IMG/VR virus record: IMGVR_UViG_3300046792_000297
Location: 39,955-103,954 of that record
Reading direction: 5' to 3' (one strand)
DNA from: a virus
DNA length: 64,000 nucleotides
Below, piece after piece: positions 1 to 22,448 of this stretch (position 1 is its first letter; each line of letters opens with the position of its first letter). A program made the translations under genes and the position numbers. The notes beneath the pieces were generated by a model that worked only from the letters and a program-made list of their open reading frames with translations, was not told where the DNA came from and searched no databases.

Positions 1-1
1 C

Positions 2-454
2 ACCACCGGGCTGGGCACCAACCTGAGCGACGAGGCTGTGGCCGCGACGCCCGACAAGTACGCCAGCGAACTGGGCGGCGGCGAAGGAGGGATGCCAGGC
101 ATGGGCGGACCGGGCGGGATGCCAGGTGGCCCACCGGGCGAGCCTGGCGAGGGCGAACCACCCAAGCCAGGCGGGGAAAACCCGCAGTTAGGCGCAGGAA
201 AGCCAGCAGGCGGCCTGGGCGGGCCTGGCGAGGCAGCCGGGCCGAGAGGCGTGGCCAACGAAGAGGCTCCCGCCAACACGCCGCGCGAGCTAACCGCGCC
301 TGCGCATCGTCCGCAACTGGGCATGGGCGGCGAGAACCCGTTCGCCCGCAAGCCGGTCGAGGATGACCAGACGGGGACTTCGCGCTATCAGCCGCCTGCG
401 GCACGGCAGCATGAAGCGCCGACTGCGAGGCAGCATGAACTCCCTGATCGCTAA
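2..454 (+). CDS. Portal protein C-terminus (partial, DUF1073-like)
   Basis: Frame open from the window start: TTGLGTNLSDEAVAATPDKY resembles the TG..TN(I/L)(T/S)DE end of DUF1073 portals, then a Gly/Pro low-complexity tail; lies upstream of head genes. Confidence 0.6.
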   Translation, partial: TTGLGTNLSDEAVAATPDKYASELGGGEGGMPGMGGPGGMPGGPPGEPGEGEPPKPGGENPQLGAGKPAGGLGGPGEAAGPRGVANEEAPANTPRELTAPAHRPQLGMGGENPFARKPVEDDQTGTSRYQPPAARQHEAPTARQHELPDR

Positions 455-1706
455 CGGCCTGGAGGACTGGACGCTGGCGGTCGACGCCGACTTTGATGAG
501 TCGGCAGTCAAGCGGGTTAGCAAAGGCAAGGAAGGCGGCGGGCAGTTCACGTCCAAGGGCGGCGGCGAAGAGAAGGGCGAGGAAGCCTACTTCGCGAGTG
601 GTATTGGACCGGGAGAAGAAGCGGAGCCGGGTTACGAGCCGCCTGCCAAGAAACTGACGCCGGGTCAGAAAGCGGCGGCGACCAAGGCTGGCAAGAAGGT
701 AATGGCCGCAGCGGCAGCGGTCCACCAGAAGACAGAAGCCGCGCAGCCGCCACAGCCCGTCACAGCCTCGAAGCATCCGAACTGGGCCGCGATGTCGCCG
801 GGGCAAAAGGCCGCCTGGACGAAGAAGCAGAACCAGGCGGCCAACAACAAAAAGATTCAGGAAGCGGCAAAGGCCACACCGGCCCAGCAGAAGCAGGCGG
901 AGCAGGCGCTGACGGCGGCGGAGCAGAAGGGCCACAAGCCGCTCTGGGTCAAAGCCACGGTGAACGGCGAACCCCAAATCTTCAAGCTCCAAGGCGTGCC
1001 CAGCGGCCTGGATAGTACGGCCAGCGTGCAGAAGCTGCTGGGCGAACAGCCCGATAAGTGGGGCGAGCTACACCCGGTTAGCGTTCAGAACGTGTCGCTG
1101 TGGAATGAATCGAAACCTCTGCCTCCCGCTTTCGAGACCGTCACGGCAGAGCAGAAGGCCATCGACAAGCTGGAAACCGAGAAGTACGAAGAGGCCAAAG
1201 CGGCGGTCCTGGCCAGCGGCCCGATCACTAGTAGCGAGTCACTAAGCGACGACATCATCTCTTCCATCAAGAGCTACACTGACGGCAGCTACCTGGCCCT
1301 GAATAAGGCGCTGCGAACCGGGCAGCCTCTGCAAAGCCACCAGGCCGTAATGGCGGCCAACCTGGACAAAGCCATTCGGAACAACAAGGTGCTGAGTGAG
1401 CGCAAGGTTTATCGTGGGCTTACGGATGCCGAAAAGTTCTTCGGCCCGACCGTGAAGATCGGCACCATCGTGATTGACAACGGCTTCATTTCAGTCAGCA
1501 AACACAGGGACACCGCCGATAACTTCGCGGGCTACAACGGCAAGGTGTGCGTGATTTCGCTGCCCAAGGGCAGCCCGGCGCTGGACATAGAGGCGTGGAG
1601 CTTGCTTGGCGATAGTGAGAAAGAAGCCCTATTACCTCGTGGTTCAATGTTCAAAGTCACCAACGTGAGCGGCAAGGAGGTTCACCTTGAGTATGCCAAC
1701 TATTGA
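435..1706 (+). CDS. ADP-ribosyltransferase (VIP2/Alt-like R-S-E clade) with shared N-terminal leader
   Basis: C-terminal YT...Y..LN..LR, VYRG, FISVS, EKEALLPRG motifs; N-terminus MNSLIANGLEDWTLAVD-ADFDES; ATG 435 follows GAGG. Confidence 0.9.
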   Translation: MNSLIANGLEDWTLAVDADFDESAVKRVSKGKEGGGQFTSKGGGEEKGEEAYFASGIGPGEEAEPGYEPPAKKLTPGQKAAATKAGKKVMAAAAAVHQKTEAAQPPQPVTASKHPNWAAMSPGQKAAWTKKQNQAANNKKIQEAAKATPAQQKQAEQALTAAEQKGHKPLWVKATVNGEPQIFKLQGVPSGLDSTASVQKLLGEQPDKWGELHPVSVQNVSLWNESKPLPPAFETVTAEQKAIDKLETEKYEEAKAAVLASGPITSSESLSDDIISSIKSYTDGSYLALNKALRTGQPLQSHQAVMAANLDKAIRNNKVLSERKVYRGLTDAEKFFGPTVKIGTIVIDNGFISVSKHRDTADNFAGYNGKVCVISLPKGSPALDIEAWSLLGDSEKEALLPRGSMFKVTNVSGKEVHLEYANY

Positions 1707-1878
1707 CCCCGAGCGGCTGAAGCGTTACCAGTGGGACCAGGACTCGCTCACCGTGGCCAGCGTGGGCACGGGCGAGGAAGTCAAGCTCGACCAGCCCAAG
1801 GAGGCCAAGAAGGACGACCAGGCCAAGGACCAGGCCATCTTCTCCAACTCGCTCGACGTGATGCTGGACGAGGAATAA
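1693..1878 (+). CDS. Small acidic protein overlapping the ART stop (candidate inhibitor/partner)
   Basis: AAGGAGG at 1674-1680; about 61 aa (TTG 1687 is an alternative start); ends AIFSNSLDVMLDEE; TAATG-coupled to the next gene. Confidence 0.7.
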   Translation: MPTIDPERLKRYQWDQDSLTVASVGTGEEVKLDQPKEAKKDDQAKDQAIFSNSLDVMLDEE

Positions 1879-2798
1879 TGATTAGCTGCCTGATCGCCAA
1901 CGGCTTGGAAGACTGGACCCTGGCGGTCGACGACTTCAAGGAAGCGGCGGTTCCGCGCGACGAGTCGGGCAAGTGGACCGGCAAGGGCGGTTCGAGCGGC
2001 GAAGCCAAGCCCCTGAACGCGGCGCACAAAGCCTGGGCCACGCGCAAAGCTAAACAGCAGGCGGCGCAATCGAAGAAGCCGGTCGACTATCTGGCCAAGA
2101 AGGTCGGCGGGCAAGGGGGCTCCAATCCGGGCGGGACCTATGAGGGCAGTGACGGCAAGAAACGCTACGTCAAGTTCTACAAGAACATGGCGCAGGGTCG
2201 GGCGGAATGCACGGCGGACACTATCTACAACGACCTGGGCATCGGCGCACACAAGAGCGACGTGTTCGAGGCGGACGGCAAAGAGGCGTTCGCGGCGGAA
2301 CTGATCGACGGCGGCGACCTGCTCAAGGATGTGGGCCTGAACAAGGAGAACGCTCGCGCCATCATGGAAGGCTTCGCGGCAGACGTGCTCATGGCCAACT
2401 GGGACAGCGTCGGCCTGGTCAACGACAACATCCTGCTCAAGGATGGCAAAGCCTACCGCATCGACAACGGGGCCACCTTCACGCACCGCGCGATGGCGTC
2501 CAGTCCGCCCAAGCCGGAAGGGCTGCTGCACAAGATCACCGAATGGGACGGGCTGTTCAACCCCAACATCAACGCGCAGTTCAGCCAGGTCGCCAAGGCC
2601 GCCGGATACAAATCGCCCAGCGACATCCCCGACATCAAGGCGCAAGTGGAGAAGATCGTCAAGCTCCGCGACCAGAGCGGCGGGTGGGACAAGTACCTCC
2701 AGGGCAAAGCGCCGTTCCTGTCCGACCAGGAGCGAAAGCAGTATGCCGGAATGCTGGACAGCCGCACCAAGCTACTGAGGGAGAAAGTCCAGGCGTGA
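1878..2798 (+). CDS. HipA/PI3-PI4-kinase-like kinase with shared leader
   Basis: GGSNPGG..Y...YVK, AE, ANWD..G...DNIL and RIDNG motifs; N-terminus MISCLIANGLEDWTLAVD-DFKEAAVPRDESGKW. Confidence 0.8.
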   Translation: MISCLIANGLEDWTLAVDDFKEAAVPRDESGKWTGKGGSSGEAKPLNAAHKAWATRKAKQQAAQSKKPVDYLAKKVGGQGGSNPGGTYEGSDGKKRYVKFYKNMAQGRAECTADTIYNDLGIGAHKSDVFEADGKEAFAAELIDGGDLLKDVGLNKENARAIMEGFAADVLMANWDSVGLVNDNILLKDGKAYRIDNGATFTHRAMASSPPKPEGLLHKITEWDGLFNPNINAQFSQVAKAAGYKSPSDIPDIKAQVEKIVKLRDQSGGWDKYLQGKAPFLSDQERKQYAGMLDSRTKLLREKVQA

Positions 2799-2808
2799 AG
2801 GGGTGGCG

Positions 2809-3672
2809 ATGAGAGATTGTCTGATCGGTAACGGCCTGGAGGATTGGACCCTCACCCTGGCGCTCGACGAGGGCGACTTCAAGGAGGAGCAGCACCCGCG
2901 CGACGAAACCGGCAAGTTCTCGCTGGGCAAAGGCGAGTCGACCGAGGAAGCCTTCAAGCATCCCACGACCGGCGAGTACGCGCCCAAGCGTTCGCAGCGC
3001 CACCAGGCCATTGTGGACAAGATCGTGGCGGGCAAGAAGTCCAGCGGAGCGCCCACCGCCTACATCATGGGCGGCGGATCGGCTTCGGGCAAGTCGACCG
3101 GCTTCAAGAAGAAGTTCGCCCGCAAGATGCGGATGGCGCTGGCGCACATCGACTCCGACGCCATCAAGAACCATCTTCCCGAGTACGAGAGGCTGAAGCA
3201 GATTGATCCCGAGAAGGCCGCCTACCGGGTGCATGAGGAGTCCAGCCACATCGCCAAGAAGGCGCTGGCGGCGGCCATTGCCGGGAAGCTCGACCTGGTC
3301 TACGACTCGACTGGCGCGGGCGGCGGCACGCAGGACATGGCCAAGCGGCTCAAGGGCGAGGGTTACAAGGTGCACGTGGTCTACTTCGACATTCCCATAC
3401 CGGAGGCCAAGGTGCGGGCCGGGAAACGGGCGGAGAAAACCGGGCGGCACATTCCCGAGCACGTGATCCAAGGTTCGCACAAGGGCAGCGCCAAGAACTT
3501 CATGGAGATGACCAAGGGCGGTCACATCGACAAGATGAGCCTCTACGATACGACCGAGCGCGTGCCCACGCTGGTCTACTCCAAGGAAGGTTCACGCCCT
3601 GGTATGATTATGGAAGGTGAGAAATGGAAAGAGTACATGAAGAAGGCGGGAGTGGAGGAGAACCAGAAGTGA
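2809..3672 (+). CDS. Zeta-toxin-family P-loop kinase with shared leader
   Basis: MGGGSASGKST Walker A, IDSDAIK..LPEY, HEESS, YDST, R...TGRHIP; N-terminus MRDCLIGNGLEDWTLTLALD-EGDFKEEQHPRDETGKF. Confidence 0.88.
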   Translation: MRDCLIGNGLEDWTLTLALDEGDFKEEQHPRDETGKFSLGKGESTEEAFKHPTTGEYAPKRSQRHQAIVDKIVAGKKSSGAPTAYIMGGGSASGKSTGFKKKFARKMRMALAHIDSDAIKNHLPEYERLKQIDPEKAAYRVHEESSHIAKKALAAAIAGKLDLVYDSTGAGGGTQDMAKRLKGEGYKVHVVYFDIPIPEAKVRAGKRAEKTGRHIPEHVIQGSHKGSAKNFMEMTKGGHIDKMSLYDTTERVPTLVYSKEGSRPGMIMEGEKWKEYMKKAGVEENQK

Positions 3673-3791
3673 TCCACCACTACACCGACGACACCGATTC
3701 CGACGTATTCCAAGACAAGGACGACCTGGCCGAGTTCGATGCCATGCTGGATAAAGCCAAGCAGGCGGCCAAGCAAAAACCCACCCAGTAA
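3669..3791 (+). CDS. 40-aa acidic peptide coupled to the zeta gene (candidate antitoxin)
   Basis: Not in the ORF track; GTGA overlap with the zeta stop, GGAGGAG RBS at 3654-3660; MIHHYTDDTDSDVFQDKDDLAEFDAMLDKAKQAAKQKPTQ. Confidence 0.7.
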   Translation: MIHHYTDDTDSDVFQDKDDLAEFDAMLDKAKQAAKQKPTQ

Positions 3792-3852
3792 TTCCCCTCA
3801 CATTCTGACCTTCTTCCGGCACCGGGAGAACCTCGACCCACGGAGAGAGCGC

Positions 3853-4095
3853 ATGGCCGACTGGGACGGAGCCCTCCAGGCTCCGCAGGGGATGTTTCGC
3901 GTGATTGGCGAGGACGAGCTACAGACACCAGCCGTGCGCTCGTGGATCGGCGACTACCGCTCGCTGGCTAGCGCCCGGCGGGTGGCCAACGACCACGCTA
4001 CGCCGCTGAATCCGGTAGTCGTATTCGATGACCAGAGCAAGACCCAGTGCCTCACCTGGGGCGACGTCGAAGTGGACGCGGAGGGCATCGTATGA
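3853..4095 (+). CDS. Hypothetical protein
   Basis: ATG after GGAGAG; ATGA overlap with the next gene. Confidence 0.65.
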   Translation: MADWDGALQAPQGMFRVIGEDELQTPAVRSWIGDYRSLASARRVANDHATPLNPVVVFDDQSKTQCLTWGDVEVDAEGIV

Positions 4096-5519
4096 GCGTG
4101 ACAGGGGGAACCACCGGTAGCTCGATCACGCTCGGCAGCCTGGGGCTGGTCAAGTACAGCGACGACGAGGTTGGCTGGGGCACGGGCTGGAACGGCAACA
4201 TGGACACCATCGACGCGGCGATCTCCAGCCTCCAGGTGGGCGGGTCGCAGGTGCAGGCCGACTGGGATGCGACCTCGGGCCTGGCCGAGATTCTCAACAA
4301 ACCGGACCTGGCTCCGGTCGCGACTTCGGGCGACTATGCCGATCTGGTCGGCGTGCCCGCGCTGCCGCACAACTTCAGTTCGCAGCCGCACCTGTTCCTG
4401 AACGGCTACAACGCCATCCTGGGCGTGTTCTCGGCGGCCCAGGCGACCGCGTCGGACGTCTCGGGGCTGGCACCTATCGCCATCTCGGGCAGCTACAACG
4501 ACCTCACCAACAAGCCAGTGCTGCCTGCGACTCAGGTGGCAGTGCCCAATCGCTTCTTCACCGCCTACAGCGCGACGACTGGCTTGTTTACGGAGGCGCA
4601 GCCTACAGCGCTGGACGTCTCCGGCCTGGCCGCCGTGGCAACCTCCGGCTCCTACACTGATCTCATCAACAAGCCGGTCCTGGCGGCTAACTCGCCTGCG
4701 GTGGCTCACCAGTTTCTCACCAGCTACGACAACATCACCGGGGCGTTCACCAAGGCCCAACCTGGCGCGGCGGATGTCAGCGGGCTGGCTCCTTCGGCAA
4801 CTATCGACACCACCAACGCGCTCAACATCACTTCGGGCACGCTGGCCGTGGCGCGGCTGCCTGTCATTCCGGCCACGCAGATCAGCGGGCTGGCGCTGGT
4901 GGCCACTTCGGGCTCCTATCTCGACTTGAGCAACAAGCCGGTGCTGGCAGCGACCATTGCCGCGACACCGAACAACTTCCTGACCGCCTACAACGCGGTC
5001 ACGGGTATCTTCACCAAGGGCCAACCGGCAGCGACGGACGTAACCGGCCTGGCCACGGTCGCCACGACCGGCAGCTACACCGACCTGATCAACAAGCCCA
5101 TCCTGCCAGTCAACACGGGCAGCACGCCGCACCAGTTCTTCATCGCCTACGACAACACGACCGGCGGCTTCCTCAAGGCGCAGCCAGCGGCGGCGGATGT
5201 GACTGGTTTGGCGACGGTCGCCACTTCGGGCTCCTACAACGACCTCACCAACAAACCAGTCTTGTCCACCGTGGCAGGCTCGGGCTCCTACCTGGACCTC
5301 ACGCACAAGCCGACCTACTCATTCTGCCCAGGCACGACGCCGGGTACGGTGTTCGTCTCGCCAGGCGCGGTGATCGCGGTGACCTACAACGGCACCGTGC
5401 TGCCGCGCGGCGTGGCCGCTCCCAAGCTGAGCTACACGCTGGCCGGGGATAACGTGACGATCACGCTCAACTTCACTGCCGAAGCCGGAGACCGAGTCGA
5501 TGCGTTCTGTACTACTTAG
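4092..5519 (+). CDS. Fibre-like structural protein with 53-aa repeats
   Basis: Five about 53-aa units starting LA.VATSGSY.DL.NKP plus partial copies; N-terminal LGL....GWG...N.N...ID motif typical of phage fibres. Confidence 0.8.
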   Translation: MSVTGGTTGSSITLGSLGLVKYSDDEVGWGTGWNGNMDTIDAAISSLQVGGSQVQADWDATSGLAEILNKPDLAPVATSGDYADLVGVPALPHNFSSQPHLFLNGYNAILGVFSAAQATASDVSGLAPIAISGSYNDLTNKPVLPATQVAVPNRFFTAYSATTGLFTEAQPTALDVSGLAAVATSGSYTDLINKPVLAANSPAVAHQFLTSYDNITGAFTKAQPGAADVSGLAPSATIDTTNALNITSGTLAVARLPVIPATQISGLALVATSGSYLDLSNKPVLAATIAATPNNFLTAYNAVTGIFTKGQPAATDVTGLATVATTGSYTDLINKPILPVNTGSTPHQFFIAYDNTTGGFLKAQPAAADVTGLATVATSGSYNDLTNKPVLSTVAGSGSYLDLTHKPTYSFCPGTTPGTVFVSPGAVIAVTYNGTVLPRGVAAPKLSYTLAGDNVTITLNFTAEAGDRVDAFCTT

Positions 5520-8500
5520 GGCAGTCGGAATAATGATTTTTGTGCTGGCGGGGCGGGCGGCGGCTCAGAGCAACCCGCACACCCAGATCGCCTGGCCCGC
5601 GAACTGCGACGACAGCAACTTCATGACCTACAACGTGCTCTCGAATACCTGCTTCAATGCCGGATCGACTAAACGTCCCATCGCGCCGCTAGCCAACGTT
5701 TCCCGGCCCGCGAGTTCCTCGGCCACCGGCGCGGCCATGCCCCAACAGGTGATCGCTTTCTTAGGTAATTCGCTGGTCGCGGGTGACACTGGGAGCACCA
5801 CCGAATTTTGCAATGAAGCAGGGATAGCTTCCACTAACGGACTTGGTCCTTTATTTATGGCGGGACACCAGTGCCGCCCGGCAACCAACATCACCGTGGA
5901 CAGCAGTAACAATGTGACCCTGGCGGTCAACAACGCCGACGGGTACTTTCAGAATGGTACGCGCTTCACCGCGTATGGTGGGGCAGGAGTGGATGGCGGA
6001 TGTCTCTACGATTCCTACATCGTCACCAGTGCCACGACAACGCAGATCGTATTCCCCAGTGCGCCCAACACGCCTTGCGCTCCGCTCGCCAGCACTCCGG
6101 TGGTCGCGAACAATGTTTTGTTGACCACCAGCCTCCAGAGGTTCGGCCAAAACGGCGGTTCGCTGGATTCATGGTTTAGCACCGTAGGCAACTGGACCTT
6201 TTCCGGCTACAAGACTTGGATTCAAGGAGCAATCGCGGCGGGGCAAACCCCGATTACCATCATGCGCGATGCGGGAATCATGACCAATTCCACCCGTATG
6301 AGCGCAATGGACTATCGGGCCTGGATGGCCGACCTCATGCCGGTGATCGCGGCTATCCAGGGCATTAGTGCTACGAATCCGGCAGGAGAAACAGTTTATG
6401 TTTCCAGCTTGCCATTCTACATCGACACCGGGAATCCCGAGGCTTGCAACACCGCTATGACGGCTTCCAGTACAGCGCCGTGTTCGGGAGGTCAGAACAC
6501 TGGGGCTGGCGGAGTGTATGTTCCACCCGTGCAGATGCCAGCCGGTGTGCAATATGTCTTCCCTTATGGGACACCGGGAAGCCAGTTTACAACTCCCGCT
6601 ACGATCACATCGGGAGCCATCAGCGCGGGAGCCAATACGGTAACGATCAATCCGTGTCCGCCTGATCTTTGGGGTGGTCCCGGCGATGTGATTCCCACCG
6701 CACTCGATTCGAACGGACTGCTACGCAGTCACGGCAACCTGATCCAGATGGTGGTTGATTCTGCCGCCTCGGCTGCGCAGGAACTTGTTTCGTTGACCGC
6801 GATCATCCCCACGGGAGCAACTGGACTGCATAATTGGCAGACTTGTCAGGTATCGTTCACTGCCGCTTTCGCTCATGCTGCGAACGCACCGATTTATGCC
6901 ACGCAGTTTACGGCTGACCAGACCTGGGTGCGGTGGAAGCTGCAAATCCCTTATGATGTGGCGGCTGCTTATCCCGGCCACATTGAAGTAATAGACACGC
7001 TCACCGCGATGGGGCGACAGGTTGCGAATCCCGGCTGGTGGATAGGGAATGAGCTTCATCCTGGTCTGGGTGGATACGCCAAGATCGGCAACCGGGAATT
7101 CACGGCACTAGCGTCCTATCAGCTTGCGCCCAAGCCTCCACCTACTCCTGATCCTTTAGCGTTTGATTATGCCACGCACCAAGTCAGCTTGCGAACAGGC
7201 GCGATTGACATCAACTTTGATCTCGACGCGGCAACGGCGGCTCGTGCCTTAGCTCTTGGGCACAATTGCGGTATGTACTACAACAAGTGCGACATAGACC
7301 CAGCTATGTTTTATCCCTCTGCCCTCTCGCCCACCATGACCTTCACTCACGGTACGCAGTTTGCTCGTATGACGATGGCGATTCAATCGGGGCAGAATTT
7401 GAGTGGAGACGGGCAAACGGGCGATTTTCTCTATACCAGTGTTGGGGGTAGCTGGCAACCAACGACACTAACTGCAATGGGGTTTGTTCCCGCCAGCTTA
7501 CTGGGTTTCAATTTTACCGGCACCCCCCCTGTGGACATGTCTGGCCGAGGGGCCATCATGCGTCCCTTCTATGCTGATCCGCTACAAGGAGCGAAGTTTG
7601 CCGCGCATCCGATCAGTTATCCGCTGAATGGCACCTATAACCTCAAGGTGGGCACTTCAACAACGAATAACCTGGTGTTTTCCATTCCCGTCGCTCAGAA
7701 TCCCGCTGTCATTGGCGGGCAGACTCTAACCTGTTTGCAAATCGAGATGCAAGCCGGAGACTGGATTGTCACCGCAGGAAACATTCCCGGTTCACAGGCT
7801 ACCGCCGCCGGGGTGTCCATCCAGTTGCCGACCGGAAGCTGGAATCCTCTCACCTGCACCTGGACGGACACCAGCGGAACAAACTACAGCGTCTACAACG
7901 GCGTGATGGCTACGCTGGTGCAGCAGTTCAGAGCGCCGGATGCAACGTTCAGTCTCGTTACCGCGCAGCAAAAAATACAAACACAAGCACTAACTGCGTT
8001 ACAGGGCGTTCAATCGCCCGGTACGCCCACTGTTATAGGTGTGGTTGGAGGAGCATTTACAAGCGCAACTACTGGCGGCAATTGCGCGAATGGAACAGCT
8101 TACACTCTAGGTCTGGCTTACATGCCTCTTGGTTGGGGAACGGACTACACTCATGCAGGTGCGATTCGCACCGTCTATGCAGTCTATACGCCAACTACCG
8201 GTACGACAACGGATGTTGTCGGAATCAATATCACTACAGCAGCGCCCTTTGGTTACACAACGGTAGCCTATCTGCTTATTGGTGGGACTTATTATGCGTT
8301 CGGCAAAGCACCGTCCACAGGTGCAGGTGTGATTACGACAACCTGCCCAGCAACCGGCGCTGGATTGATTGTGGCCAACACTTATGATAACGGCAGTGTG
8401 GGCTTTGTAGGCCCGGCATTCAGTTCGAGCGCCCCCCAGACCACTGTCAACTGTTCCACTTCAGGAACTGCAATCTTCGCGCAGACGCAAACCGGATCGA

Positions 8501-8697
8501 GCGAGAAGAAGGTGCTGGTCTATCTGGCGGCTTGCAGCGGCACGGCCAGCTACACCTTCCCGGTGCCGTTCACCCACTCGCCCAGCGTGTTCGGCTCGGA
8601 CGATGTGGCGGCCAGCATCGTGACGGCCAAGAGCACGACCGCCGTGACGGTGACCGGTGCGCCGTCGACCGGGGCGCTCGTGCTGGACAGCTTCTGA
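5500..8697 (+). CDS. Large secreted-type protein with SGNH/GDSL-like esterase domain and fibre-like C-terminus
   Basis: Signal-peptide-like MRSVLLRAVGIMIFVLAGRAAA-Q; AFLGNSL block I and ELHP...GY block V motifs; Cys/Thr/Gly-rich. Confidence 0.7.
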   Translation: MRSVLLRAVGIMIFVLAGRAAAQSNPHTQIAWPANCDDSNFMTYNVLSNTCFNAGSTKRPIAPLANVSRPASSSATGAAMPQQVIAFLGNSLVAGDTGSTTEFCNEAGIASTNGLGPLFMAGHQCRPATNITVDSSNNVTLAVNNADGYFQNGTRFTAYGGAGVDGGCLYDSYIVTSATTTQIVFPSAPNTPCAPLASTPVVANNVLLTTSLQRFGQNGGSLDSWFSTVGNWTFSGYKTWIQGAIAAGQTPITIMRDAGIMTNSTRMSAMDYRAWMADLMPVIAAIQGISATNPAGETVYVSSLPFYIDTGNPEACNTAMTASSTAPCSGGQNTGAGGVYVPPVQMPAGVQYVFPYGTPGSQFTTPATITSGAISAGANTVTINPCPPDLWGGPGDVIPTALDSNGLLRSHGNLIQMVVDSAASAAQELVSLTAIIPTGATGLHNWQTCQVSFTAAFAHAANAPIYATQFTADQTWVRWKLQIPYDVAAAYPGHIEVIDTLTAMGRQVANPGWWIGNELHPGLGGYAKIGNREFTALASYQLAPKPPPTPDPLAFDYATHQVSLRTGAIDINFDLDAATAARALALGHNCGMYYNKCDIDPAMFYPSALSPTMTFTHGTQFARMTMAIQSGQNLSGDGQTGDFLYTSVGGSWQPTTLTAMGFVPASLLGFNFTGTPPVDMSGRGAIMRPFYADPLQGAKFAAHPISYPLNGTYNLKVGTSTTNNLVFSIPVAQNPAVIGGQTLTCLQIEMQAGDWIVTAGNIPGSQATAAGVSIQLPTGSWNPLTCTWTDTSGTNYSVYNGVMATLVQQFRAPDATFSLVTAQQKIQTQALTALQGVQSPGTPTVIGVVGGAFTSATTGGNCANGTAYTLGLAYMPLGWGTDYTHAGAIRTVYAVYTPTTGTTTDVVGINITTAAPFGYTTVAYLLIGGTYYAFGKAPSTGAGVITTTCPATGAGLIVANTYDNGSVGFVGPAFSSSAPQTTVNCSTSGTAIFAQTQTGSSEKKVLVYLAACSGTASYTFPVPFTHSPSVFGSDDVAASIVTAKSTTAVTVTGAPSTGALVLDSF

Positions 8698-8705
8698 GGA
8701 CCATT

Positions 8706-8927
8706 ATGCCCATCACTGACCTCGAACACGCGCAACTTCGGGTGGAGCATGGGCAGTTGAAGTTGCAACTGCTGGAAGCGCAGAGCCGGATCGTGCAGCT
8801 TCAACACACGCTGCTCGCTAAGGAACTGGAGCAGGCGACCAAAGATTATCAGGCGCTCAAGGAGCAGGCCGATGCCCAGGTCGACCAGACCCTCAACCTC
8901 AACGGCCATCTTCGCGAACAGTCTTGA
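8706..8927 (+). CDS. Small coiled-coil protein (possible fibre chaperone)
   Basis: GAGGA RBS; Leu/Gln heptads; directly after the fibre-like gene. Confidence 0.6.
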   Translation: MPITDLEHAQLRVEHGQLKLQLLEAQSRIVQLQHTLLAKELEQATKDYQALKEQADAQVDQTLNLNGHLREQS

Positions 8928-9372
8928 CTACTGGACAGACTCCCAGTGGGCGGCGGACGCGGCGCAGTCTACCTTTCGCCGCCTGCATGGTTTGTTAATT
9001 GTTGTTGAAAATCCACAATACTCGCTGCGCCAGGGACGCGGCTGGATGTCTGCCGCACCCGCTGATTACGGCTACATCGCAGGCACCAAGGGAGCCGACG
9101 GCGACGAAATCGACTGCTACGTGGGTGACAACCCGGAGAGCCGGATCGCCTATATTGTGGATCAGAATAAAGTCGGCTCGCCGTTAGAGTTCGACGAACA
9201 TAAGGTATTCCTAAACTACCCTTCCCTGGCTGCGGCCAAGCAAGACTACCTCGACGGGCACACGGACGGCGCGAAGATTCTTCGCGCCATTACGGCTGTC
9301 GACCTGAAGACTTTGAAAGCGTGGCTGAAGCAGAGTAACCATGAGCGACCCTACAGCGAAACCGCAAGATAA
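8872..9372 (+). CDS. Inorganic-pyrophosphatase-like (phage InPase-type) protein with leader variant
   Basis: ENP...R.G..W...DYGYI.GT.GADGD.ID.YVG...DQ...FDEHKV.L motifs; N-terminal AIFANSLDYWTDSQWAAD-AA. Confidence 0.85.
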   Translation: MPRSTRPSTSTAIFANSLDYWTDSQWAADAAQSTFRRLHGLLIVVENPQYSLRQGRGWMSAAPADYGYIAGTKGADGDEIDCYVGDNPESRIAYIVDQNKVGSPLEFDEHKVFLNYPSLAAAKQDYLDGHTDGAKILRAITAVDLKTLKAWLKQSNHERPYSETAR

Positions 9373-9496
9373 TGGACCGGGCAAGAGCCTGACCATCGTG
9401 ATCTGCCCCCGGTGTGGCGCACTGATCTCCGAGGAACTGAAGGCCAAGCACAACGAGTGGCACGAGCAGCTACGGCAGATCGGTATGCCGGAATGA
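9341..9496 (+). CDS. 51-aa C2H2 zinc-finger peptide
   Basis: Hand translation: CPRC...HNEWH; fills the gap between the InPase and topoisomerase genes. Confidence 0.55.
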   Translation: MSDPTAKPQDNGPGKSLTIVICPRCGALISEELKAKHNEWHEQLRQIGMPE

Positions 9497-9508
9497 AAGG
9501 TCGCGCCC

Positions 9509-10789
9509 ATGAACGCCAGCTTTGCCAACTCCCTCGACGGGATCGACTGGGACGAGTCAGCCTGGGCGCTCGACGCCGAGTTCGATGAATCGGCCATCAA
9601 GCGTGTAAGCGCGGGCAAGGAAGGCGGCGGCCAGTTCGCGTCCGGCGGCGGAGCCGCAGGAGCCGAAGCTGGAGCCGAGGCGGGCGAACGCGAGCCCGTG
9701 GCGGGCGGTGAACAGGAAGCGGGCGCAGAGGGCGAGGAAGGCGAAGAGGACGAAGAGGAAGACGAAGAGGCGGGAGCCAAGCAGAAGGCCCGCAAGTCGG
9801 CCCACCTGGTAGCGGCGGGCGAGAACCGCGAGCAGTGGCCGGAACACATTCGCAAGATGGTCATCCCACCCGCCTGGACCGACGTCCAGATCGCCATGTC
9901 GCCCGACGCCGACCTGCAAGTGGTGGGCCGGGACAAGAAGGGCCGCAAGCAGTACGTCTACTCGGAGCAGTTCAAGAACTCGCAGGCGGCGCTGAAGTAC
10001 GCCCGCATGGAGTCGCTGCGCCAGGAGAAGCCGGGTATCATCGGCCAGCTTGCGGAGATGCACCAGAGCGCCGACCGCAAGCTGCGCGACCACGCCGACT
10101 GTGCCACGCTGGTCATGAAGATGGGCATCCGGCCTGGCTCGGACACCGACACCAAGGCGGAGAAGAAGGCTTACGGCGCGAGCACGCTCGAAGGCAAGCA
10201 CGTGGTGGTCGAGAACGGCCAGGTCTTCCTGCGCTTCACGGGCAAGAAGGGCGTCGACCTGAACCTGCCGGTCGAGGACAAGACGCTGGCCGCCAACCTG
10301 GCCAGCCGGGCCAAGAAGGCCGGGGCGGAGGGGCGGCTGTTCGGCGACGTGTACTCCGGTTCGCTGCTCCAGTTCGTCAAGAAGGACCTGGATCACGGCG
10401 GCTTCAAGACCAAGGACTTCCGTACCCTGCTGGCCAACGAGTTGGCCGTCAAGGCCATGAAGGGCGTGGCCAAGCCCAAGGATGCCAAGCAGTACAAGGC
10501 GGCGGTCAAGGAAGTGGCCACGCACGTGTCCAGCCGGTTGGGCAACACACCCACGGTCGCGCTCCAGTCCTACATCCACCCGGCGGTGTTCGGCGAGTGG
10601 AAGGGGGCCGCCGACGTACCGGCGGTCCAGGCCAAGGGCAAGAAGAAGGGTAAAGCCAAGGGGAAGAAGAAGCCCGCCGCCAAGCCCGCCGAGCCCGGCA
10701 AGCTGAGTGGAGCCGCGCTGGCCTGGGCCACGCGGCGAGCCGCCAAGGAGGCCGCCCATGCCGGAACCGCAGCCGCAGCCGCAAGCTGA
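9509..10789 (+). CDS. DNA topoisomerase IB (bacterial/poxvirus type) with shared leader
   Basis: IPPAWTDV, GRD.KGRKQY.Y, IRPG, YGASTL, FTGKKG, KDFRT, LGNTP.V...SYI with R-K-R-N-Y catalytic set; N-terminus MNASFANSLDGIDWDESAWALD-AEFDESAIKRVSAGKEGGGQF. Confidence 0.93.
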   Translation: MNASFANSLDGIDWDESAWALDAEFDESAIKRVSAGKEGGGQFASGGGAAGAEAGAEAGEREPVAGGEQEAGAEGEEGEEDEEEDEEAGAKQKARKSAHLVAAGENREQWPEHIRKMVIPPAWTDVQIAMSPDADLQVVGRDKKGRKQYVYSEQFKNSQAALKYARMESLRQEKPGIIGQLAEMHQSADRKLRDHADCATLVMKMGIRPGSDTDTKAEKKAYGASTLEGKHVVVENGQVFLRFTGKKGVDLNLPVEDKTLAANLASRAKKAGAEGRLFGDVYSGSLLQFVKKDLDHGGFKTKDFRTLLANELAVKAMKGVAKPKDAKQYKAAVKEVATHVSSRLGNTPTVALQSYIHPAVFGEWKGAADVPAVQAKGKKKGKAKGKKKPAAKPAEPGKLSGAALAWATRRAAKEAAHAGTAAAAAS

Positions 10790-10955
10790 CGAGGAACTGC
10801 CCGAACTGCACTTCGGACGCGCCGACGCGCCGCCGCTCGACTGGAGGAAGTACAAAGATGATTCCCTGGATGATGACGAGCCGCTTGCGCAAACGCCTGC
10901 GAGCACGGTTGCAATCCTCGGCTTCGACCCCCTCGACCTCGACAGCGACGAATAA
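10758..10955 (+). CDS. Small very acidic protein overlapping the topoisomerase stop (candidate inhibitor/DNA mimic)
   Basis: AAGGAGG RBS; 65 aa, D/E-rich, ends TP.ST..ILGFDPLDLDSDE. Confidence 0.7.
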   Translation: MPEPQPQPQADEELPELHFGRADAPPLDWRKYKDDSLDDDEPLAQTPASTVAILGFDPLDLDSDE

Positions 10956-10977
10956 TGATTTTTCCGGGGGTGCGCTC

Positions 10978-11193
10978 ATGTCGCCGCCGCTCGACTGGAG
11001 AAGGTACAAGGTACACATCGACCCGGACGCCATCGTGATCCAAGGCAAGCGCATCGACCTGGGCGTGTTCCTGGCCCTGATCGACGCCGACAAGCGGCTG
11101 CTCTGGCGCTTCATTGAGCGCGAGGGCAAGATCGAGGCCGTGTGCTTCGACGAACAGCAAGTGATCTGGATCGACCAACCACCGGCAGAATAA
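10978..11193 (+). CDS. Hypothetical protein
   Basis: 71 aa with GC3-rich codon usage; starts with PPLDWRRYK, duplicated from the previous gene. Confidence 0.6.
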   Translation: MSPPLDWRRYKVHIDPDAIVIQGKRIDLGVFLALIDADKRLLWRFIEREGKIEAVCFDEQQVIWIDQPPAE

Positions 11194-16388: not shown

Positions 16389-17249
16389 ATGCCCGGCTTC
16401 CGCCCGCCCAACCGCATCGAGATCGCTTACCGGCGGGCCATCACCGACGCGCTGGCCGAACTGCTCGGCCTGATCCCGCCCGACCTCAGTGAAGGCGAGT
16501 GGCTCACCCAACTGGCGGCGCTCGGCTACCGCCCGGAGATGCTCGACCTGGCCGCTCGCACGGCCTACAAGATGGTCGAGTGGATCAACATCGACAACGC
16601 CAAGAGTTGGCGGGCCGCCTCGCGGCAGTCGCAACGCTCGCAAAGATTATTCCGCCTCTTGCAGCACGAACTGGCCGGGCCGGTCGGCGTCACCCTGAAC
16701 TGGCTGGTGCGGGAGAACGCCAAGCTGATCTCCTCGATCCCGTCGACTGTCGCGTCGATGTTGACCGGCGAGATCGCGACGGCGGCGCAGGGCGGAGCCC
16801 GGCACGAAACGATGACGCGGATGATGCGGGTCCGCTTTCCCGAATTGACCCACAACCGCATCGCCCTGATTGCTCGCACGGAGACGGCCAAGGCGTCGAC
16901 GGCGCTCACGCGAGCGCGGTCGGAAGAGTTGGACCTGACCTGGTTCGTCTGGAAGACTTCGGAGGATCGCCGGGTGCGCCCGGCGCATAAGAACCTGAAC
17001 GGCGTGCTGGTTTCCTGGGCCGACCTGCCGCAGCCCGAGGCGCTGATCGGGGAGAAGAGCACGCTGGGCAAGGGCGCGGCGGGCGACTTTCCCAACTGCC
17101 GCTGCTACCCCGCCCCGTTGCTCTCGCTCGACGACGTGTTCGCCAACGGCAGCGTGCGGGCGCGGGTGTATCACAACGACCACATTGAACGCATGACGCG
17201 GGCGCAGTTCGCGCGGCTGTCGGGCGTCGAGCGCCGCTACGCGGCTTGA
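16389..17249 (+). CDS. MuF / SPP1 gp7-family head morphogenesis protein (no C-terminal toxin extension)
   Basis: R...IARTET.K, W.TS.D.RVR..H..L.G and NCRC motifs. Confidence 0.92.
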   Translation: MPGFRPPNRIEIAYRRAITDALAELLGLIPPDLSEGEWLTQLAALGYRPEMLDLAARTAYKMVEWINIDNAKSWRAASRQSQRSQRLFRLLQHELAGPVGVTLNWLVRENAKLISSIPSTVASMLTGEIATAAQGGARHETMTRMMRVRFPELTHNRIALIARTETAKASTALTRARSEELDLTWFVWKTSEDRRVRPAHKNLNGVLVSWADLPQPEALIGEKSTLGKGAAGDFPNCRCYPAPLLSLDDVFANGSVRARVYHNDHIERMTRAQFARLSGVERRYAA

Positions 17250-17260
17250 AGGACACCATA

Positions 17261-18505: not shown

Positions 18506-18874
18506 ATGCCGCTTACCAACAAGGGCGAATCAATCTTGAACTCGATGCGCGAAACTTACCCCTCGGAGGCAAAGGCCAAAGAGGTCTTCTATGCCTCAAA
18601 GAACGCACACACCATCAGTGGCGTCGACGCCATGTGCCGCGACGCCGACGAGATCGACGACGTGGGCCAGTCGGTGCTGCACGCGGTCGATGCGGAGTAT
18701 CCCATGCCTGGCCAACTGCCCGGCATCCGCATCAACGAGACGGGCCAGTCGGTGCTGCACGCCATCGACGCGAACGGCGGCGGCAACTCGGGCGCGGTGA
18801 TCTCGCCCACGCCGGAACTGGGCCAGAGCGCCTACCAGCGTGGCGAGGCCATCCCCGAAGCTAAGCGGGATTAG
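18506..18874 (+). CDS. Conserved small phage protein (MPLT.KG...VFYAS.N type) with repeated GQSVLHA(V/I)DA extension
   Basis: GGAGG RBS; recognisable N-terminal motif; two to three internal repeats. Confidence 0.75.
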   Translation: MPLTNKGESILNSMRETYPSEAKAKEVFYASKNAHTISGVDAMCRDADEIDDVGQSVLHAVDAEYPMPGQLPGIRINETGQSVLHAIDANGGGNSGAVISPTPELGQSAYQRGEAIPEAKRD

Positions 18875-18880
18875 CCGTCT

Positions 18881-18940
18881 GCCACGTCGCGCCAACTTGC
18901 GCCATGTCGCGCCAACGAACGCCAACTTGCGCCAACGAAC
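18881..18940. repeat. Six tandem 10-bp GCCA-initiated units
   Basis: gccacgtcgc/gccaacttgc/gccatgtcgc/gccaacgaac/gccaacttgc/gccaacgaac, intergenic. Confidence 0.85.
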
Positions 18941-18960
18941 TCAATAACCAGGAGGTTGTC

Positions 18961-19119
18961 ATGATCGCAGTAATTTTGATCATTCTGGTGTTAATGAATG
19001 GCATTGGGGCATGGGCATCCCCACAACCGGGTTACTACAGGCATGGATGGGGCGTGTTGGGTTTGATTTGCCTAATCCTGTTGATCATCTTGTTACTAAA
19101 GCCAGAGTTGCTCCACTGA
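18961..19119 (+). CDS. Small two-TM hydrophobic peptide
   Basis: GGAGG RBS at 18951; 52 aa, highly hydrophobic, AT-richer than its neighbours. Confidence 0.7.
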   Translation: MIAVILIILVLMNGIGAWASPQPGYYRHGWGVLGLICLILLIILLLKPELLH

Positions 19120-19127
19120 GGGCCGCC

Positions 19128-19493
19128 ATGACGATACAGGCTGGACACTCCGCATTCTCCGATCCACCCGCCGTGACCCATGCGGTCCAGCGCGACGAGC
19201 AGGGGCGCTTCGCCTCAGATGGCATCGGCGCGGGCAACTCCGCCTTGAGCGAACTCGCGCCCATCAATGCTCTACCCGTGCAGGTCTACGAAGCCTCGGA
19301 AAGCGAAGGCCCGCCGTTCGGCAGCGAGGCGGTGATCGAGCGCAGCGACGCGGGCCAGGCGACCAGCGAGCAGGCGGTCGAGCCGCTGATCAGCGCGGCC
19401 AAGGACGAAATGCGTCACCAGGAAGAGGGCTGGGACCCCGCCGGGTCGGCTCCGCAGCCGCTGCGACCGTGGGACGACAGCGCGGCCAAATAA
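19128..19493 (+). CDS. Acidic hypothetical protein with QRDEQGRF motif
   Basis: ATG after GAGG; motif resembles the PRDESGKW/HPRDETGKF motif of the cargo genes. Confidence 0.65.
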   Translation: MTIQAGHSAFSDPPAVTHAVQRDEQGRFASDGIGAGNSALSELAPINALPVQVYEASESEGPPFGSEAVIERSDAGQATSEQAVEPLISAAKDEMRHQEEGWDPAGSAPQPLRPWDDSAAK

Positions 19494-19568
19494 CACCACA
19501 TTAATCATTGTCGAGTAATGTCCTGGGTTCACCGGACGAGCGCCGTGATGCGCCTGGGAGTTGCTTTC

Positions 19569-19751
19569 ATGGATGACCAACGCAAGGTTAGCCCAAACGA
19601 AGTCCGCGCCATGCAGGCGGAACTCGACCGTATGGAGCGCGAAAGCCCCCACCATCCTGAGATCGACGCCCTGCGCAACCGGCTCCAGATTGCCTACCTC
19701 GAACTGGGCGTGCAGGAATTCGGAGGACACCATGCCGATGAATCCGGGTAA
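19569..19751 (+). CDS. Hypothetical helical protein
   Basis: GGGAG RBS before ATG 19569. Confidence 0.55.
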   Translation: MDDQRKVSPNEVRAMQAELDRMERESPHHPEIDALRNRLQIAYLELGVQEFGGHHADESG

Positions 19752-20184
19752 CTCGGCCTTCGAGGCCATGCCGGTCGTCCACGACAACTTCACGTCGCTG
19801 GGGCCGGGCTCCATCCCGGTCACCGACGCCCGCGAGCTTCCCTTCGCGCCGGACTCCCTTCCGGCGCTCGACGCGGGCACCACCGAGGGCGCGAAGAAAG
19901 CCTGGGAGTCGCGCAGCGGCGGCGAGCCGACCACCTCCAAGGGATCGCGCAGCAAAGCCAATTCTGGCCTGGCCACCATCTCGCGCAAGTATCACAACTC
20001 GATTCCGGTACAGGAAATCAACCACGCCCTGACCTCCGCTGGCCTCCAGCCGATGGAAGGCGGAATTTTCACCGGCAAAGAGGGGCGCTCGCACGAACAG
20101 GTTGGCCCCAACACCTGGCTCTCCTTGCAGTGGCACAAGATGGAAGCCACCGGGCGCTGGGAAATCAACGCCTACGTCAGCTAA
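19732..20184 (+). CDS. Hypothetical protein with ALD-AGTTEGAKKAWESR motif
   Basis: GGAGGA RBS; immediately upstream of the protease/scaffold gene. Confidence 0.7.
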   Translation: MPMNPGNSAFEAMPVVHDNFTSLGPGSIPVTDARELPFAPDSLPALDAGTTEGAKKAWESRSGGEPTTSKGSRSKANSGLATISRKYHNSIPVQEINHALTSAGLQPMEGGIFTGKEGRSHEQVGPNTWLSLQWHKMEATGRWEINAYVS

Positions 20185-21887: not shown

Positions 21888-22448
21888 ATGCCCGCAACTG
21901 TCATTCCAGTAAAGGGACTCAAACTTGGCTTCGTTGGGAATATCAGTAATGAGGGCTATTCCCTTCGCACGCCGCGCATGGTCAAGGCCGCCGATCCGAA
22001 TCCTATCGCGTTCGGTGAGACCGTGACCGTCAACTCCGACAACACCTACTCCAGCATCAAGAGTTTCGTCGCGGCGGCGGGCACGGTCCTCGCCACCACG
22101 CCGCTGGGCATTGCCGTGTCGAACGTGAACATCAACCCGGTCTACGCCACCACGGGTTCCGGCAACCTGCTCACGGGCGGCGGCAAGTACAACCAGGGCG
22201 AGATCGCCGACGTGCTGGTCAAGGGTACGGTGAATGTTTACTGCGCCAACGGTGCGCCCACCGCCAACGGCAACGTCTACATCCGGGTCGCGCTGAACGG
22301 CGCGATTCCCAACGGCGTCATCGGCGGCCTGGAAGCGGCAGCCGACGCAGCCAACTCCGTCCTGCTCACCAACCTGAAGTGGAAGACCGGGTACATCGAA
22401 GACGATGGCTCTTGCCAGGTCACCATCCTCAACCGCTTCATCCCCTAA
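21888..22448 (+). CDS. Capsid cement/decoration protein
   Basis: Between scaffold and capsid; GF.G, I.FG.V, V...G.V.V, VY.R motifs. Confidence 0.8.
   Translation: MPATVIPVKGLKLGFVGNISNEGYSLRTPRMVKAADPNPIAFGETVTVNSDNTYSSIKSFVAAAGTVLATTPLGIAVSNVNINPVYATTGSGNLLTGGGKYNQGEIADVLVKGTVNVYCANGAPTANGNVYIRVALNGAIPNGVIGGLEAAADAANSVLLTNLKWKTGYIEDDGSCQVTILNRFIP

Follow-up and report, generated by a model that had tools for sequence, protein, structure and literature searches.

Five unrelated enzyme genes in a phage head module share a two-part N-terminal leader that may mark them as capsid cargo

Why would five unrelated enzymes, encoded among the head genes of a phage, begin with the same short peptide? 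The question is raised by a complete uncultured phage genome of 103,954 bp (IMG/VR record IMGVR_UViG_3300046792_000297), known from a metagenome alone, with direct terminal repeats and a CheckV completeness of 100%. The stretch analysed, hereafter the window, comprises the 64,000 nucleotides from 39,955 to 103,954 of this record, and coordinates are those of the window unless stated otherwise. Between portal and MuF, all on the plus strand, five enzyme genes carry one common N-terminal peptide, as the initial annotation had proposed. The genes, and the two leader parts as delimited by the leader alignment, are the following.

1..454 (genome 38633-40408), plus strand: 3′ end of the portal gene (Phage_portal_3, E 9.8e-86, N-terminal 455 aa); its stop overlaps the ART start
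435..1706, plus strand: ADP-ribosyltransferase (ART), candidate cargo gene (ADPrib_exo_Tox, E 2.5e-17); GAGG upstream of the ATG at 435
444-485 and 489-548, plus strand: ART leader, part 1 (LIANGLEDWTLAVD) and part 2 (DFDESAVKR...GGGQF)
1693..1878, plus strand: small acidic ORF, overlapping the ART stop and coupled to the kinase start by a TAATG overlap
1840-1875, plus strand: sixth leader copy, AIFSNSLDVMLDEE-stop, at the C-terminus of this small ORF
1878..2798, plus strand: kinase-like candidate cargo gene (HipA_2/PI3_PI4-like fold by ESM-Atlas likeness; homologous modules in P0083, P0139 and P0145)
1890-1931 and 1932-1976, plus strand: kinase leader, part 1 and part 2 (DFKEAAVPRDESGKW)
2809..3672, plus strand: zeta-toxin-type kinase, candidate cargo gene (Zeta_toxin, E 8.9e-28; Walker A GGGSASGKST)
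2821-2868 and 2869-2919, plus strand: zeta leader, part 1 and part 2 (EGDFKEEQHPRDETGKF, the canonical form)
8872..9372, plus strand: InPase pyrophosphatase, candidate cargo gene (InPase, E 1.4e-31; same-leader orthologues in relatives L003 and L012)
8905-8958, plus strand: InPase leader, part 1 only (AIFANSLDYWTDSQWAAD), 11 residues past the ATG
9509..10789, plus strand: topoisomerase IB, candidate cargo gene (Topoisom_I, E 8.6e-18, plus Top1B_N_bact)
9518-9574 and 9575-9637, plus strand: topo IB leader, part 1 and part 2 (AEFDESAIKR...GGGQF)

Pfam-type domain matches (ADPrib_exo_Tox, Zeta_toxin, InPase, and Topoisom_I with Top1B_N_bact) bear out four of the identities first given to these enzymes. 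The fifth, the kinase, is retained in part: the protein resembles HipA_2 and PI3_PI4_kinase clusters (TM 0.72 and 0.68, ESM-Atlas), and also the C-termini of MuF fusions, but the Pfam, PHROG and NCBIfam models searched gave no match, and we call it kinase-like, a label drawn solely from the ESM-Atlas likeness and from homology to polyvalent-protein modules. Each of the five proteins has one recognisable enzyme domain, where a polyvalent protein has at least two effector domains per polypeptide, and none has a MuF domain, so that they are not MuF-plus-toxin fusions either. The genes stand alone between portal and MuF as described, although three large fibre-like genes and a number of small ORFs lie among them; they are co-directional and show overlap or coupling with the portal and adjoining genes. 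Small acidic ORFs, none matching any family, come after ART, zeta and topo IB. The leader had been placed at the extreme N-terminus, which is right for four genes, but in the InPase it begins at residue 12. An AAGGAG Shine-Dalgarno sequence lies 7 nt upstream of the InPase ATG at 8872; because it is strong, an ordinary start is likelier than a frameshift from the upstream coiled-coil ORF 8706-8927, which we rejected.

Part 1 of the leader follows the pattern [FI]-[AG]-N-[GS]-L-[ED]...W...[AL]-x-D in all five enzymes, and is continued in four by part 2, F-x-E...R...G-x-[FW], the InPase having part 1 only. When all 103,954 bp of the genome are translated in six frames, the expression [FILV][AGS]N[GS]L[ED] is matched 7 times, where fewer than one match is expected by chance (a rough estimate from residue frequencies), and 6 of the 7 are in frame within positions 447-9538 of the window. 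The leader is restricted to the portal-MuF interval: it occurs on five genes and one remnant, with no further copy in the 103,954-bp genome, and in this genome and the complete record of a relative the leader profile matches these genes only. The string FANSLDVMLD of the small ORF 1693-1878 is the N-terminal leader string on two cargo genes of relative L003. The earlier statement that the DNA copies differ largely at synonymous positions also stands, since between the ART and kinase leaders 4 of 42 bases are changed, each synonymously, and the zeta leader adds three synonymous and two non-synonymous changes and a 2-codon insertion. Moreover, the leaders are mosaic, part 1 of ART being close to the kinase and zeta versions and its part 2 to that of topo IB. 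The leader is a genuine, selected two-part peptide carried by unrelated enzymes in a head module.

That any enzyme could be placed behind such a leader fits what is seen in evolution, as relatives retain the leader and exchange the cargo. Indeed, at 76% and 68% portal identity the leader is found on RelA_SpoT, InPase and topo IB, and in two related phages a RelA/SpoT enzyme replaces ART in the first slot after the portal, an exchange behind a kept leader that is reported here for the first time. In this slot, DNA homology extends over the ribosome-binding site and leader as well as the portal 3′ end, and is lost where ART and RelA/SpoT start. In the topo IB orthologue of L003, leader and catalytic core are conserved and the linker is variable and full of indels. 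Relatives at 61-66% portal identity have no FANSLD box and begin with M-F-x-L-P-[PA]-[VC] instead; any address must therefore be clade-specific. A word-indexed protein search with topo IB residues 1-45 and leader pattern scans of IMG/VR and of GTDB genomes returned nothing besides the window's own proteins, and when the zeta leader was compared by tblastn with 50,697 phage records, only a chance match (E = 4) came up. Scanning GTDB genomes with the portal gave no related prophage, and the head module had no blastn match among phage records.

Part 2 has a different distribution. It had been read as half of each effector's own label, but it is no label private to this phage: it is the window's version of a widespread motif, AA[DEA]-[WF]-D-E-S-x-H-P-R...G-x-F, which serves as a general header in giant phage polyvalent proteins. 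The leader profile retrieved 426 representative proteins at E<=1e-3, the top ones being 600-7334 aa long with several part-2 copies each. Among 151 proteins, namely the 150 listed of these 426 matches plus the window's topo IB, 144 hold 472 copies of the motif at a median spacing of 258 aa, with H and P nearly invariant. The header recurs 2-16 times, every ~260 residues, and since it is mostly internal in these large proteins, part 2 is not an N-terminal signal as such. KAW-x-[TSE]-R, seen in the kinase, the topo IB C-terminus and a small head protein, was considered as a third general punctuation and dropped, as it occurs in 2 of the 151 proteins, one being the window's kinase.

In the domain table, header-bearing proteins combine ART, topo IB, InPase, zeta, PI3/4-kinase and Acb1 domains with MuF, portal_3, DUF2213 and S78_2, which agrees with the earlier remark that ART, zeta, kinase and InPase domains occur fused to MuF or in polyvalent proteins. 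All five window enzymes have homologues among the modules of such proteins, in four cases with the same header in front; the ART, kinase, zeta and topo modules usually lie ~20-140 aa downstream of it, and InPase modules usually have no header upstream. The header joins portal (P0089, P0130, P0086) or MuF (6 of 56 proteins) directly to the same enzymes, the first two portal fusions leading to InPase or topo IB, and in P0101, P0026 and P0110 it follows a DUF2213 protease domain within ~10 residues and precedes topo IB. That the same enzyme types are fused elsewhere to portal, MuF or DUF2213 protease supports a location inside the head. In the window phage, H-P is replaced in three of the four motif-bearing genes (VKR in ART, IKR in topo IB, VPR in the kinase), and part 2 there is partly degenerate; it is part 1 that is specific to the clade. 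The domain libraries and literature searched hold no description of the header, and no paper with DESKHPR or KHPRD was found; the link between leader part 2 and the polyvalent-protein header appears to be new.

The head genes downstream of the cargo region include a candidate prohead protease.

16389..17249, plus strand: MuF head-morphogenesis protein, stand-alone, 286 aa (Phage_Mu_F, E 7.7e-14, residues 128-239; phrog_324)
18506-18874, 19011-19493 and 19732-20184, plus strand: three small head genes with G-x-S-[VIA]-[LFY] boxes
20217..21884, plus strand: DUF2213 protein (DUF2213, E 1.3e-33; model pLDDT 73)
21888-22448, plus strand: cement protein (Phage_cement, E 5.7e-17)
22512-23537, plus strand: major capsid protein (Major_capside, E 1.1e-31)

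The MuF protein has the MuF domain only and is without a toxin, as first noted. In the DUF2213 protein, the model predicts a prohead protease domain of the T4 gp21 fold (residues 1-195), an acidic linker and a scaffold-like C-terminal part. The N-domain model aligns with T4 gp21 (5jbl_A) over 138 residues (Z 10.8, rmsd 3.2), and with the VZV and HCMV proteases at Z 7.7 and Z 4.5; its three best Foldseek matches are 5jbl chains (prob 0.96 for the first). H86, S156, D197, D448, D481 and D515 are conserved, and the otherwise variable scaffold region contains invariant D-[SAN] pairs, among them LAVD/AE (the slash marks a candidate cut). The head module is thus predicted to encode a prohead protease of gp21/assemblin fold with putative catalysis, and this modelled fold is new for the DUF2213 head protein. 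A sequence search of solved structures with DUF2213 and the kinase gave no match, and the papers found to mention DUF2213 say nothing on its function; a homologue, Pa193 gp24, has been described only as a scaffold that stays in the virion, with no cleavage shown (PMC11456595).

Part 1 of the leader resembles, in sequence, the G-x-S-hydrophobic...D/A boxes of the scaffold-protease and small head proteins. G.S[VIA][LFY] has 25 matches in the six-frame translation of the genome, of which 7 are in frame in 18506..20184 and 9 fall in 5.3 kb of head genes, where the boxes are conserved in relatives. The small head genes 18506..20184 also contain GQSVLHA[VI]D/A repeats, RDEQGRF and an N-terminal MPMNPGNSAFE, and the capsid protein has a conserved N-terminal SGQVLSD/AA, identical in relatives L003 and L005. 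Each leader is likewise followed by [AL]-x-D/[ASG]; as this pattern is short and common in an Ala-rich proteome, its recurrence is weak evidence for a cleavage site. Complex prediction with full-length DUF2213, capsid protein and leader scored 0.01, a value that counts neither way.

Taken together, we put at about even chances a reading in which the five genes are split polyvalent-protein modules with a T4-like address for loading and cutting. Single modules of the phage-type polyvalent repertoire would have become separate genes in a late head operon, each keeping its header, in which a short amphipathic stretch closes with [AL]-x-D and [FW]-x-E...(H-P)-R...G-x-[FW] comes next. The clade-specific part 1 (IANGLEDW / FANSLD) would bring each enzyme into the assembling procapsid core, where the gp21-fold DUF2213 protease would probably then cut after the conserved Asp; the enzymes would exit together with the DNA and, once in the new host, ADP-ribosylate, phosphorylate, hydrolyse pyrophosphate and relax DNA. 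By analogy with T4, the leader probably marks the enzymes as cargo that is taken up by the head and enters the host along with the DNA; packaging, binding partner, cleavage site, ejection and host targets are what we infer. Against this reading speak the internal position of part 2 elsewhere, the loss of H-P in three of four copies, an InPase leader away from the extreme N-terminus, the commonness of the [AL]-x-D/[AS] pattern, the description of Pa193 gp24 as a scaffold only, and the lack of a FANSLD box in relatives at 61-66% portal identity.

Alternatively, the leader could be a junction between modules, a linker or processing site inherited from a polyvalent protein that underwent fission, and devoid of any addressing role, the enzymes acting late in the producing cell or being packaged through another feature. 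Part 2 is indeed mainly internal in polyvalent proteins and degenerate in ART, topo IB and kinase, and InPase modules elsewhere usually go without an upstream header. However, a vestige is expected to decay, yet the leader is uniform across five paralogous positions; part 1 is the best-conserved element outside the catalytic cores, kept across phages while linkers and cargo change, and ART and kinase leaders differ at synonymous sites only. We consider this origin unlikely, and give the same low weight to the idea that the leader is a docking peptide, attaching the enzymes non-covalently to MuF or portal in place of covalent MuF- or portal-toxin fusions, with few copies per virion near the portal vertex. 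The genes do lie between portal and a toxin-free MuF, the header joins portal (P0089, P0130, P0086) or MuF (6 of 56 proteins) to the same enzymes elsewhere, and in MuF toxins the MuF domain is regarded as serving to target the capsid (PMC11699363); but topo IB is linked through the header to the DUF2213 protease domain as well, and the leader resembles boxes of the scaffold-protease and small head proteins, no similar segment being seen in MuF or portal.

Far less probable still is that the shared sequence is mainly a DNA-level recombination boundary for the exchange of cargo cassettes between phages, the peptide being functionless. Mosaic leaders (ART part 1 akin to kinase and zeta, part 2 to topo IB) and a homology breakpoint directly after the leader in the portal-proximal slot could be expected from it, but the copies differ mostly at synonymous positions, the peptide is retained where the DNA has diverged, and the motif is conserved as protein in hundreds of unrelated proteins.

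A broader form of the preferred reading, loading and cutting of split modules, we offer only tentatively. The header AA[DEA]-[WF]-D-E-S-x-H-P-R...G-x-F could be a general marker of capsid-delivered effector modules in tailed phages, a site for processing or hand-over that lies between cargo and head-assembly domains (portal, MuF, gp21-like or S78 protease). Lineages like this one may add to it a short address box, particular to their clade and copied from substrates of their own scaffold-protease, whereby an enzyme of any kind behind the leader would be loaded, trimmed and injected. MIX and FIX are markers of type VI secretion effectors, and the header would be comparable. If the leader is a true loading tag, phages far from T4 would use a portable address for swappable head enzymes, and fusion and fission of header-plus-enzyme modules could account for how giant polyvalent proteins evolved. 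Moreover, a header of 20-45 residues could then be searched to predict injected proteins in any phage genome, and laboratory systems would gain an easy way of putting foreign proteins into phage capsids. The enzymes themselves, among them topoisomerase IB and ADP-ribosyltransferase here and RelA/SpoT in relatives, may serve to take over the host early or to counter its defences.

Phage-type polyvalent proteins (Iyer, Burroughs, Anand, de Souza, Aravind 2017; PMC5512222) share with the window a repertoire of ART, zeta-like kinase, InPase and RelA/SpoT and a head-module location, whereas the window's modules are separate genes with their own starts and an extra clade-specific N-terminal box. The same study proposes metallopeptidase domains for polyvalent-protein processing, and the header motif is absent from it. 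MuF polymorphic toxins (Jamet et al. 2017, PMC5576092; Bxa and Apk2, PMC11699363) likewise place toxin-type enzymes in the head morphogenesis region, with variable C-terminal domains behind a constant N-terminal delivery element and with small downstream ORFs as candidate immunity proteins; Jamet et al. 2017 (PMC5576092) say nothing of linkers or cleavage. In the window, by contrast, the constant element is a peptide of 20-45 residues and a toxin-free MuF is encoded apart.

The ejection proteins of phiKZ and SPN3US bear propeptides that are cut by gp175/gp245 (PMC7411985, PMC10052503). In these phages a gp21-related prohead protease trims numerous proteins of the packaged set, at short sites whose P1 is acidic, as may happen here, but their propeptides are long and include no uniform shared tag, and their genomes and head architectures are unrelated. 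The closest parallel is T4. Its internal-protein capsid targeting sequence was reportedly described by Mullaney and Black in 1996. The sequence, present on IPI-III and Alt, is removed by the prohead protease gp21, and Alt is packaged (PMC9958956). The window leader has no sequence similarity to the T4 peptide and is two-part, its second part being the widespread polyvalent-protein header; the window protease is fused to scaffold (DUF2213), the head module is of the Phage_portal_3 / PF09950 capsid type, and the window phage is known from genes alone. Alike in both, a short N-terminal peptide is common to unrelated proteins (in T4, non-essential head-core proteins), ART is among the cargo, the window genome encodes a head protease with the predicted gp21 fold, and a candidate acidic P1 site follows the leader.

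The virus record is 103,954 bp long and complete: it carries direct terminal repeats, and CheckV rates it 100% complete. The window is its right-hand 64 kb. The head module lies entirely on the + strand and runs from the small and large terminase subunits through the portal, the leader-gene region, MuF, a pectate-lyase-like gene, three small genes, DUF2213 and a cement protein to the PF09950 major capsid protein.

Features of the head module discussed here (window coordinates)
3' end at 454, + strand, portal (Phage_portal_3, E 9.8e-86)
435-1706, + strand, ADP-ribosyltransferase (ART), domain confirmed by Pfam
1878-2798, + strand, kinase-like protein, ESM-Atlas likeness only
2809-3672, + strand, zeta-type kinase, domain confirmed by Pfam
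8872-9372, + strand, InPase pyrophosphatase, domain confirmed by Pfam
9509-10789, + strand, topoisomerase IB (topo IB), domain confirmed by Pfam
16389-17249, + strand, MuF
20217-21884, + strand, DUF2213

Pfam thus supports four of the five enzyme domains (ART, zeta, InPase and topo IB), and the fifth is called kinase-like solely because it resembles HipA_2/PI3_PI4 clusters in ESM-Atlas and MuF fusion C-termini. Dispersed among the five, the portal-MuF interval also holds three large genes that look fibre-like and several small ORFs. These fibre- or depolymerase-like genes (n=3; 490, 1065 and 1576 aa; 4047-8697 and 11221-15951) and the pectate-lyase-like gene (17246-18490) all sit inside the head module. 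Two genes of this set have signal-peptide-like N-termini, GC dips there to 0.54-0.56 vs 0.62-0.64, and a related contig (L007) holds similar genes in the same interval. The portal itself has a long Gly/Pro/Glu-rich C-terminal tail before its stop (GGMPGMGGPGGMPGGPPGEPGEGEPP..., window 1-454).

The initial annotation had proposed that five unrelated enzymes share one N-terminal leader, and both the leader alignment and genome-wide regular-expression and profile searches bear this out. Part 1 of the leader, [FI]-[AG]-N-[GS]-L-[ED] followed by W and then [AL]-x-D, is found on 5/5 enzymes, and part 2, F-x-E...R...G-x-[FW], continues it in 4/5, as had been claimed, the InPase having part 1 only. 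The InPase is also the exception to the statement that the proteins begin with the leader, which otherwise holds: its copy starts with residue 12, and the ATG upstream of it has a strong Shine-Dalgarno. A sixth copy, AIFSNSLDVMLDEE, forms the C-terminus of a small ORF (1693-1878). In a six-frame translation of the whole genome the leader-core expression matched seven times, six of them in frame in the leader region, and profile matches in this genome were confined to the leader genes. The DNA differences had been described as largely synonymous; between the ART and kinase leaders they amount to 4 of 42 bases, all synonymous. The leaders are also mosaic, since the ART part 1 is that of the kinase and zeta genes and its part 2 that of topo IB.

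A search of phage records and GTDB genomes yielded no close cultured phage or prophage, and portal-based scans found one related IMG/VR genome (L003, 95.6 kb, portal identity 76%) and nine metagenome contigs (41-68%). Directly 3' of its portal, L003 has three leader genes (RelA_SpoT, InPase and topo IB) with the leader FANSLDVMLDG-[WF]-x-ES-x-HPR...GGQF, and L012, the contig at 68%, has the leader on RelA_SpoT and InPase. When the portal-adjacent slots of this phage and L003 are compared, DNA homology spans the 3' end of the portal gene, then the ribosome-binding site and the entire leader, and ends at the start of ART or RelA/SpoT. Topo IB orthologues conserve leader and catalytic core around an indel-rich linker. 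Contigs at 61-66% portal identity are devoid of a FANSLD-type box and use an alternative N-terminal string, M-F-x-L-P-[PA]-[VC]. The leader is thus kept where the cargo is swapped and absent from these contigs, which makes the tag specific to its clade, conserved and cargo-independent. Among the more distant relatives (L005, L007, L008 and L009), the alternative string lies 3' of the portals on an InPase, a 904-aa ART-containing protein and a protein with HPRAEGGKF, which suggests that the address changes from clade to clade.

Part 2 has a far wider distribution. A leader-profile search with tabulation of domains and DUF2213 linkage had been proposed; we ran a 46-position profile, built from seven leaders, against 1.84 billion representative proteins and obtained 426 matches at E<=1e-3. 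The best are 600-7334 residues long and match profile positions 14-44 several times per protein. Among the best 150 of the 426 matches plus the window topo IB, 144/151 proteins carry 472 copies of a header, mostly 2-7 per protein at a median spacing of 258 residues, with the consensus L-A-A-A-[DAE]-[WF]-D-E-S-K-H-P-R...G-x-F and near-invariant H and P. In a Pfam scan of 56 header-bearing proteins, ART, topo IB, InPase, zeta, PI3/4-kinase and Acb1 domains occur alongside MuF, portal_3, DUF2213 and S78_2, and no Pfam family covers the header itself. It is neither described in Iyer et al. 2017 (PMC5512222) nor found by full-text literature search. Homologues of four window enzymes (ART, kinase, zeta kinase and topo IB) in these proteins usually lie ~20-140 residues downstream of a header, and InPase modules usually have none, as in the window. 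Part 2 is a header of modules in general; of the two parts of the leader, only the first is specific to the clade.

In other phages the header also joins enzymes to head proteins: it links portal to InPase in one protein (P0089) and portal to topo IB in another (P0130), and in three more (P0101, P0026 and P0110) it stands within ~10 residues after a DUF2213 protease domain and precedes topo IB. Such fusions argue that the same enzymes would lie inside capsids in those phages. In the latter three, topo IB and further modules replace the usual scaffold part of the DUF2213 protein, and they look like a self-processing head polyprotein.

The DUF2213 protein of this phage (model of residues 1-228, pLDDT 73) resembles the T4 prohead protease gp21 (Z 10.8, rmsd 3.2, 138 residues) and then the varicella-zoster protease (Z 7.7), far clear of the remaining matches; Foldseek likewise placed gp21 first. 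The candidate catalytic residues His86 and Ser156 are conserved, as is an RGNH-VA-VV strand. Downstream of the protease domain, four Asp-[Ser/Ala/Asn] pairs are invariant among relatives amid variable sequence, and one of them reads LAVD|AE, which the leaders of ART and kinase also have. G-x-S-[VIA]-[LFY] boxes number 25 in the six-frame genome, 9 of them in frame within 5.3 kb of head genes, and recur in the relatives' orthologues. GQSVLHAVD|A of a small head protein aligns position by position with the L003 leader ANSLDVMLD|G, and SGQVLSD|AA is conserved at the N-terminus of the capsid protein. Inferring from these short motifs, we read part 1 as a probable variant of the head-module box.

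The five enzymes are most likely polyvalent-protein modules split into separate genes. Part 1 would bring them into the procapsid core beside the scaffold-protease and the small head proteins, the gp21-fold DUF2213 protease probably trims after the leader Asp, and the enzymes would then exit with the DNA. In T4, gp21 trims IPI-III and Alt (PMC9958956). Alternatively, the leader could be a junction that was passed on from a polyvalent ancestor and serves no function, a non-covalent docking element for MuF or the portal, or a recombination boundary acting at the DNA level.

Small acidic ORFs lie 3' of ART, zeta and topo IB (1693-1878, 3624-3791, 10707-10955 and 10858-11193); none matches a family, and three have a P-x-L-x-W-R-[KR]-Y-K-like string in common at the N-terminus. 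By analogy with MuF toxin loci, they may encode immunity or chaperone proteins. A small protein with the conserved sequence WDG-x-L-x-AP-x-G-x-FRVIG lies 3' of zeta here (3850-4095) and 3' of RelA/SpoT in L012 (2138-2371), and a zinc-ribbon-like small ORF (C-P-R-C-G / C-G-R-C-G) adjoins InPase in both (window 9341-9496, L012:2420-2734).

The enzyme repertoire is common to polyvalent proteins and MuF toxins. The window enzymes nevertheless fall outside the definition of either family, because they are single-domain, which polyvalent proteins are not, and have no MuF fusion. In its working, the five-enzyme leader would resemble the capsid-targeting system of T4.
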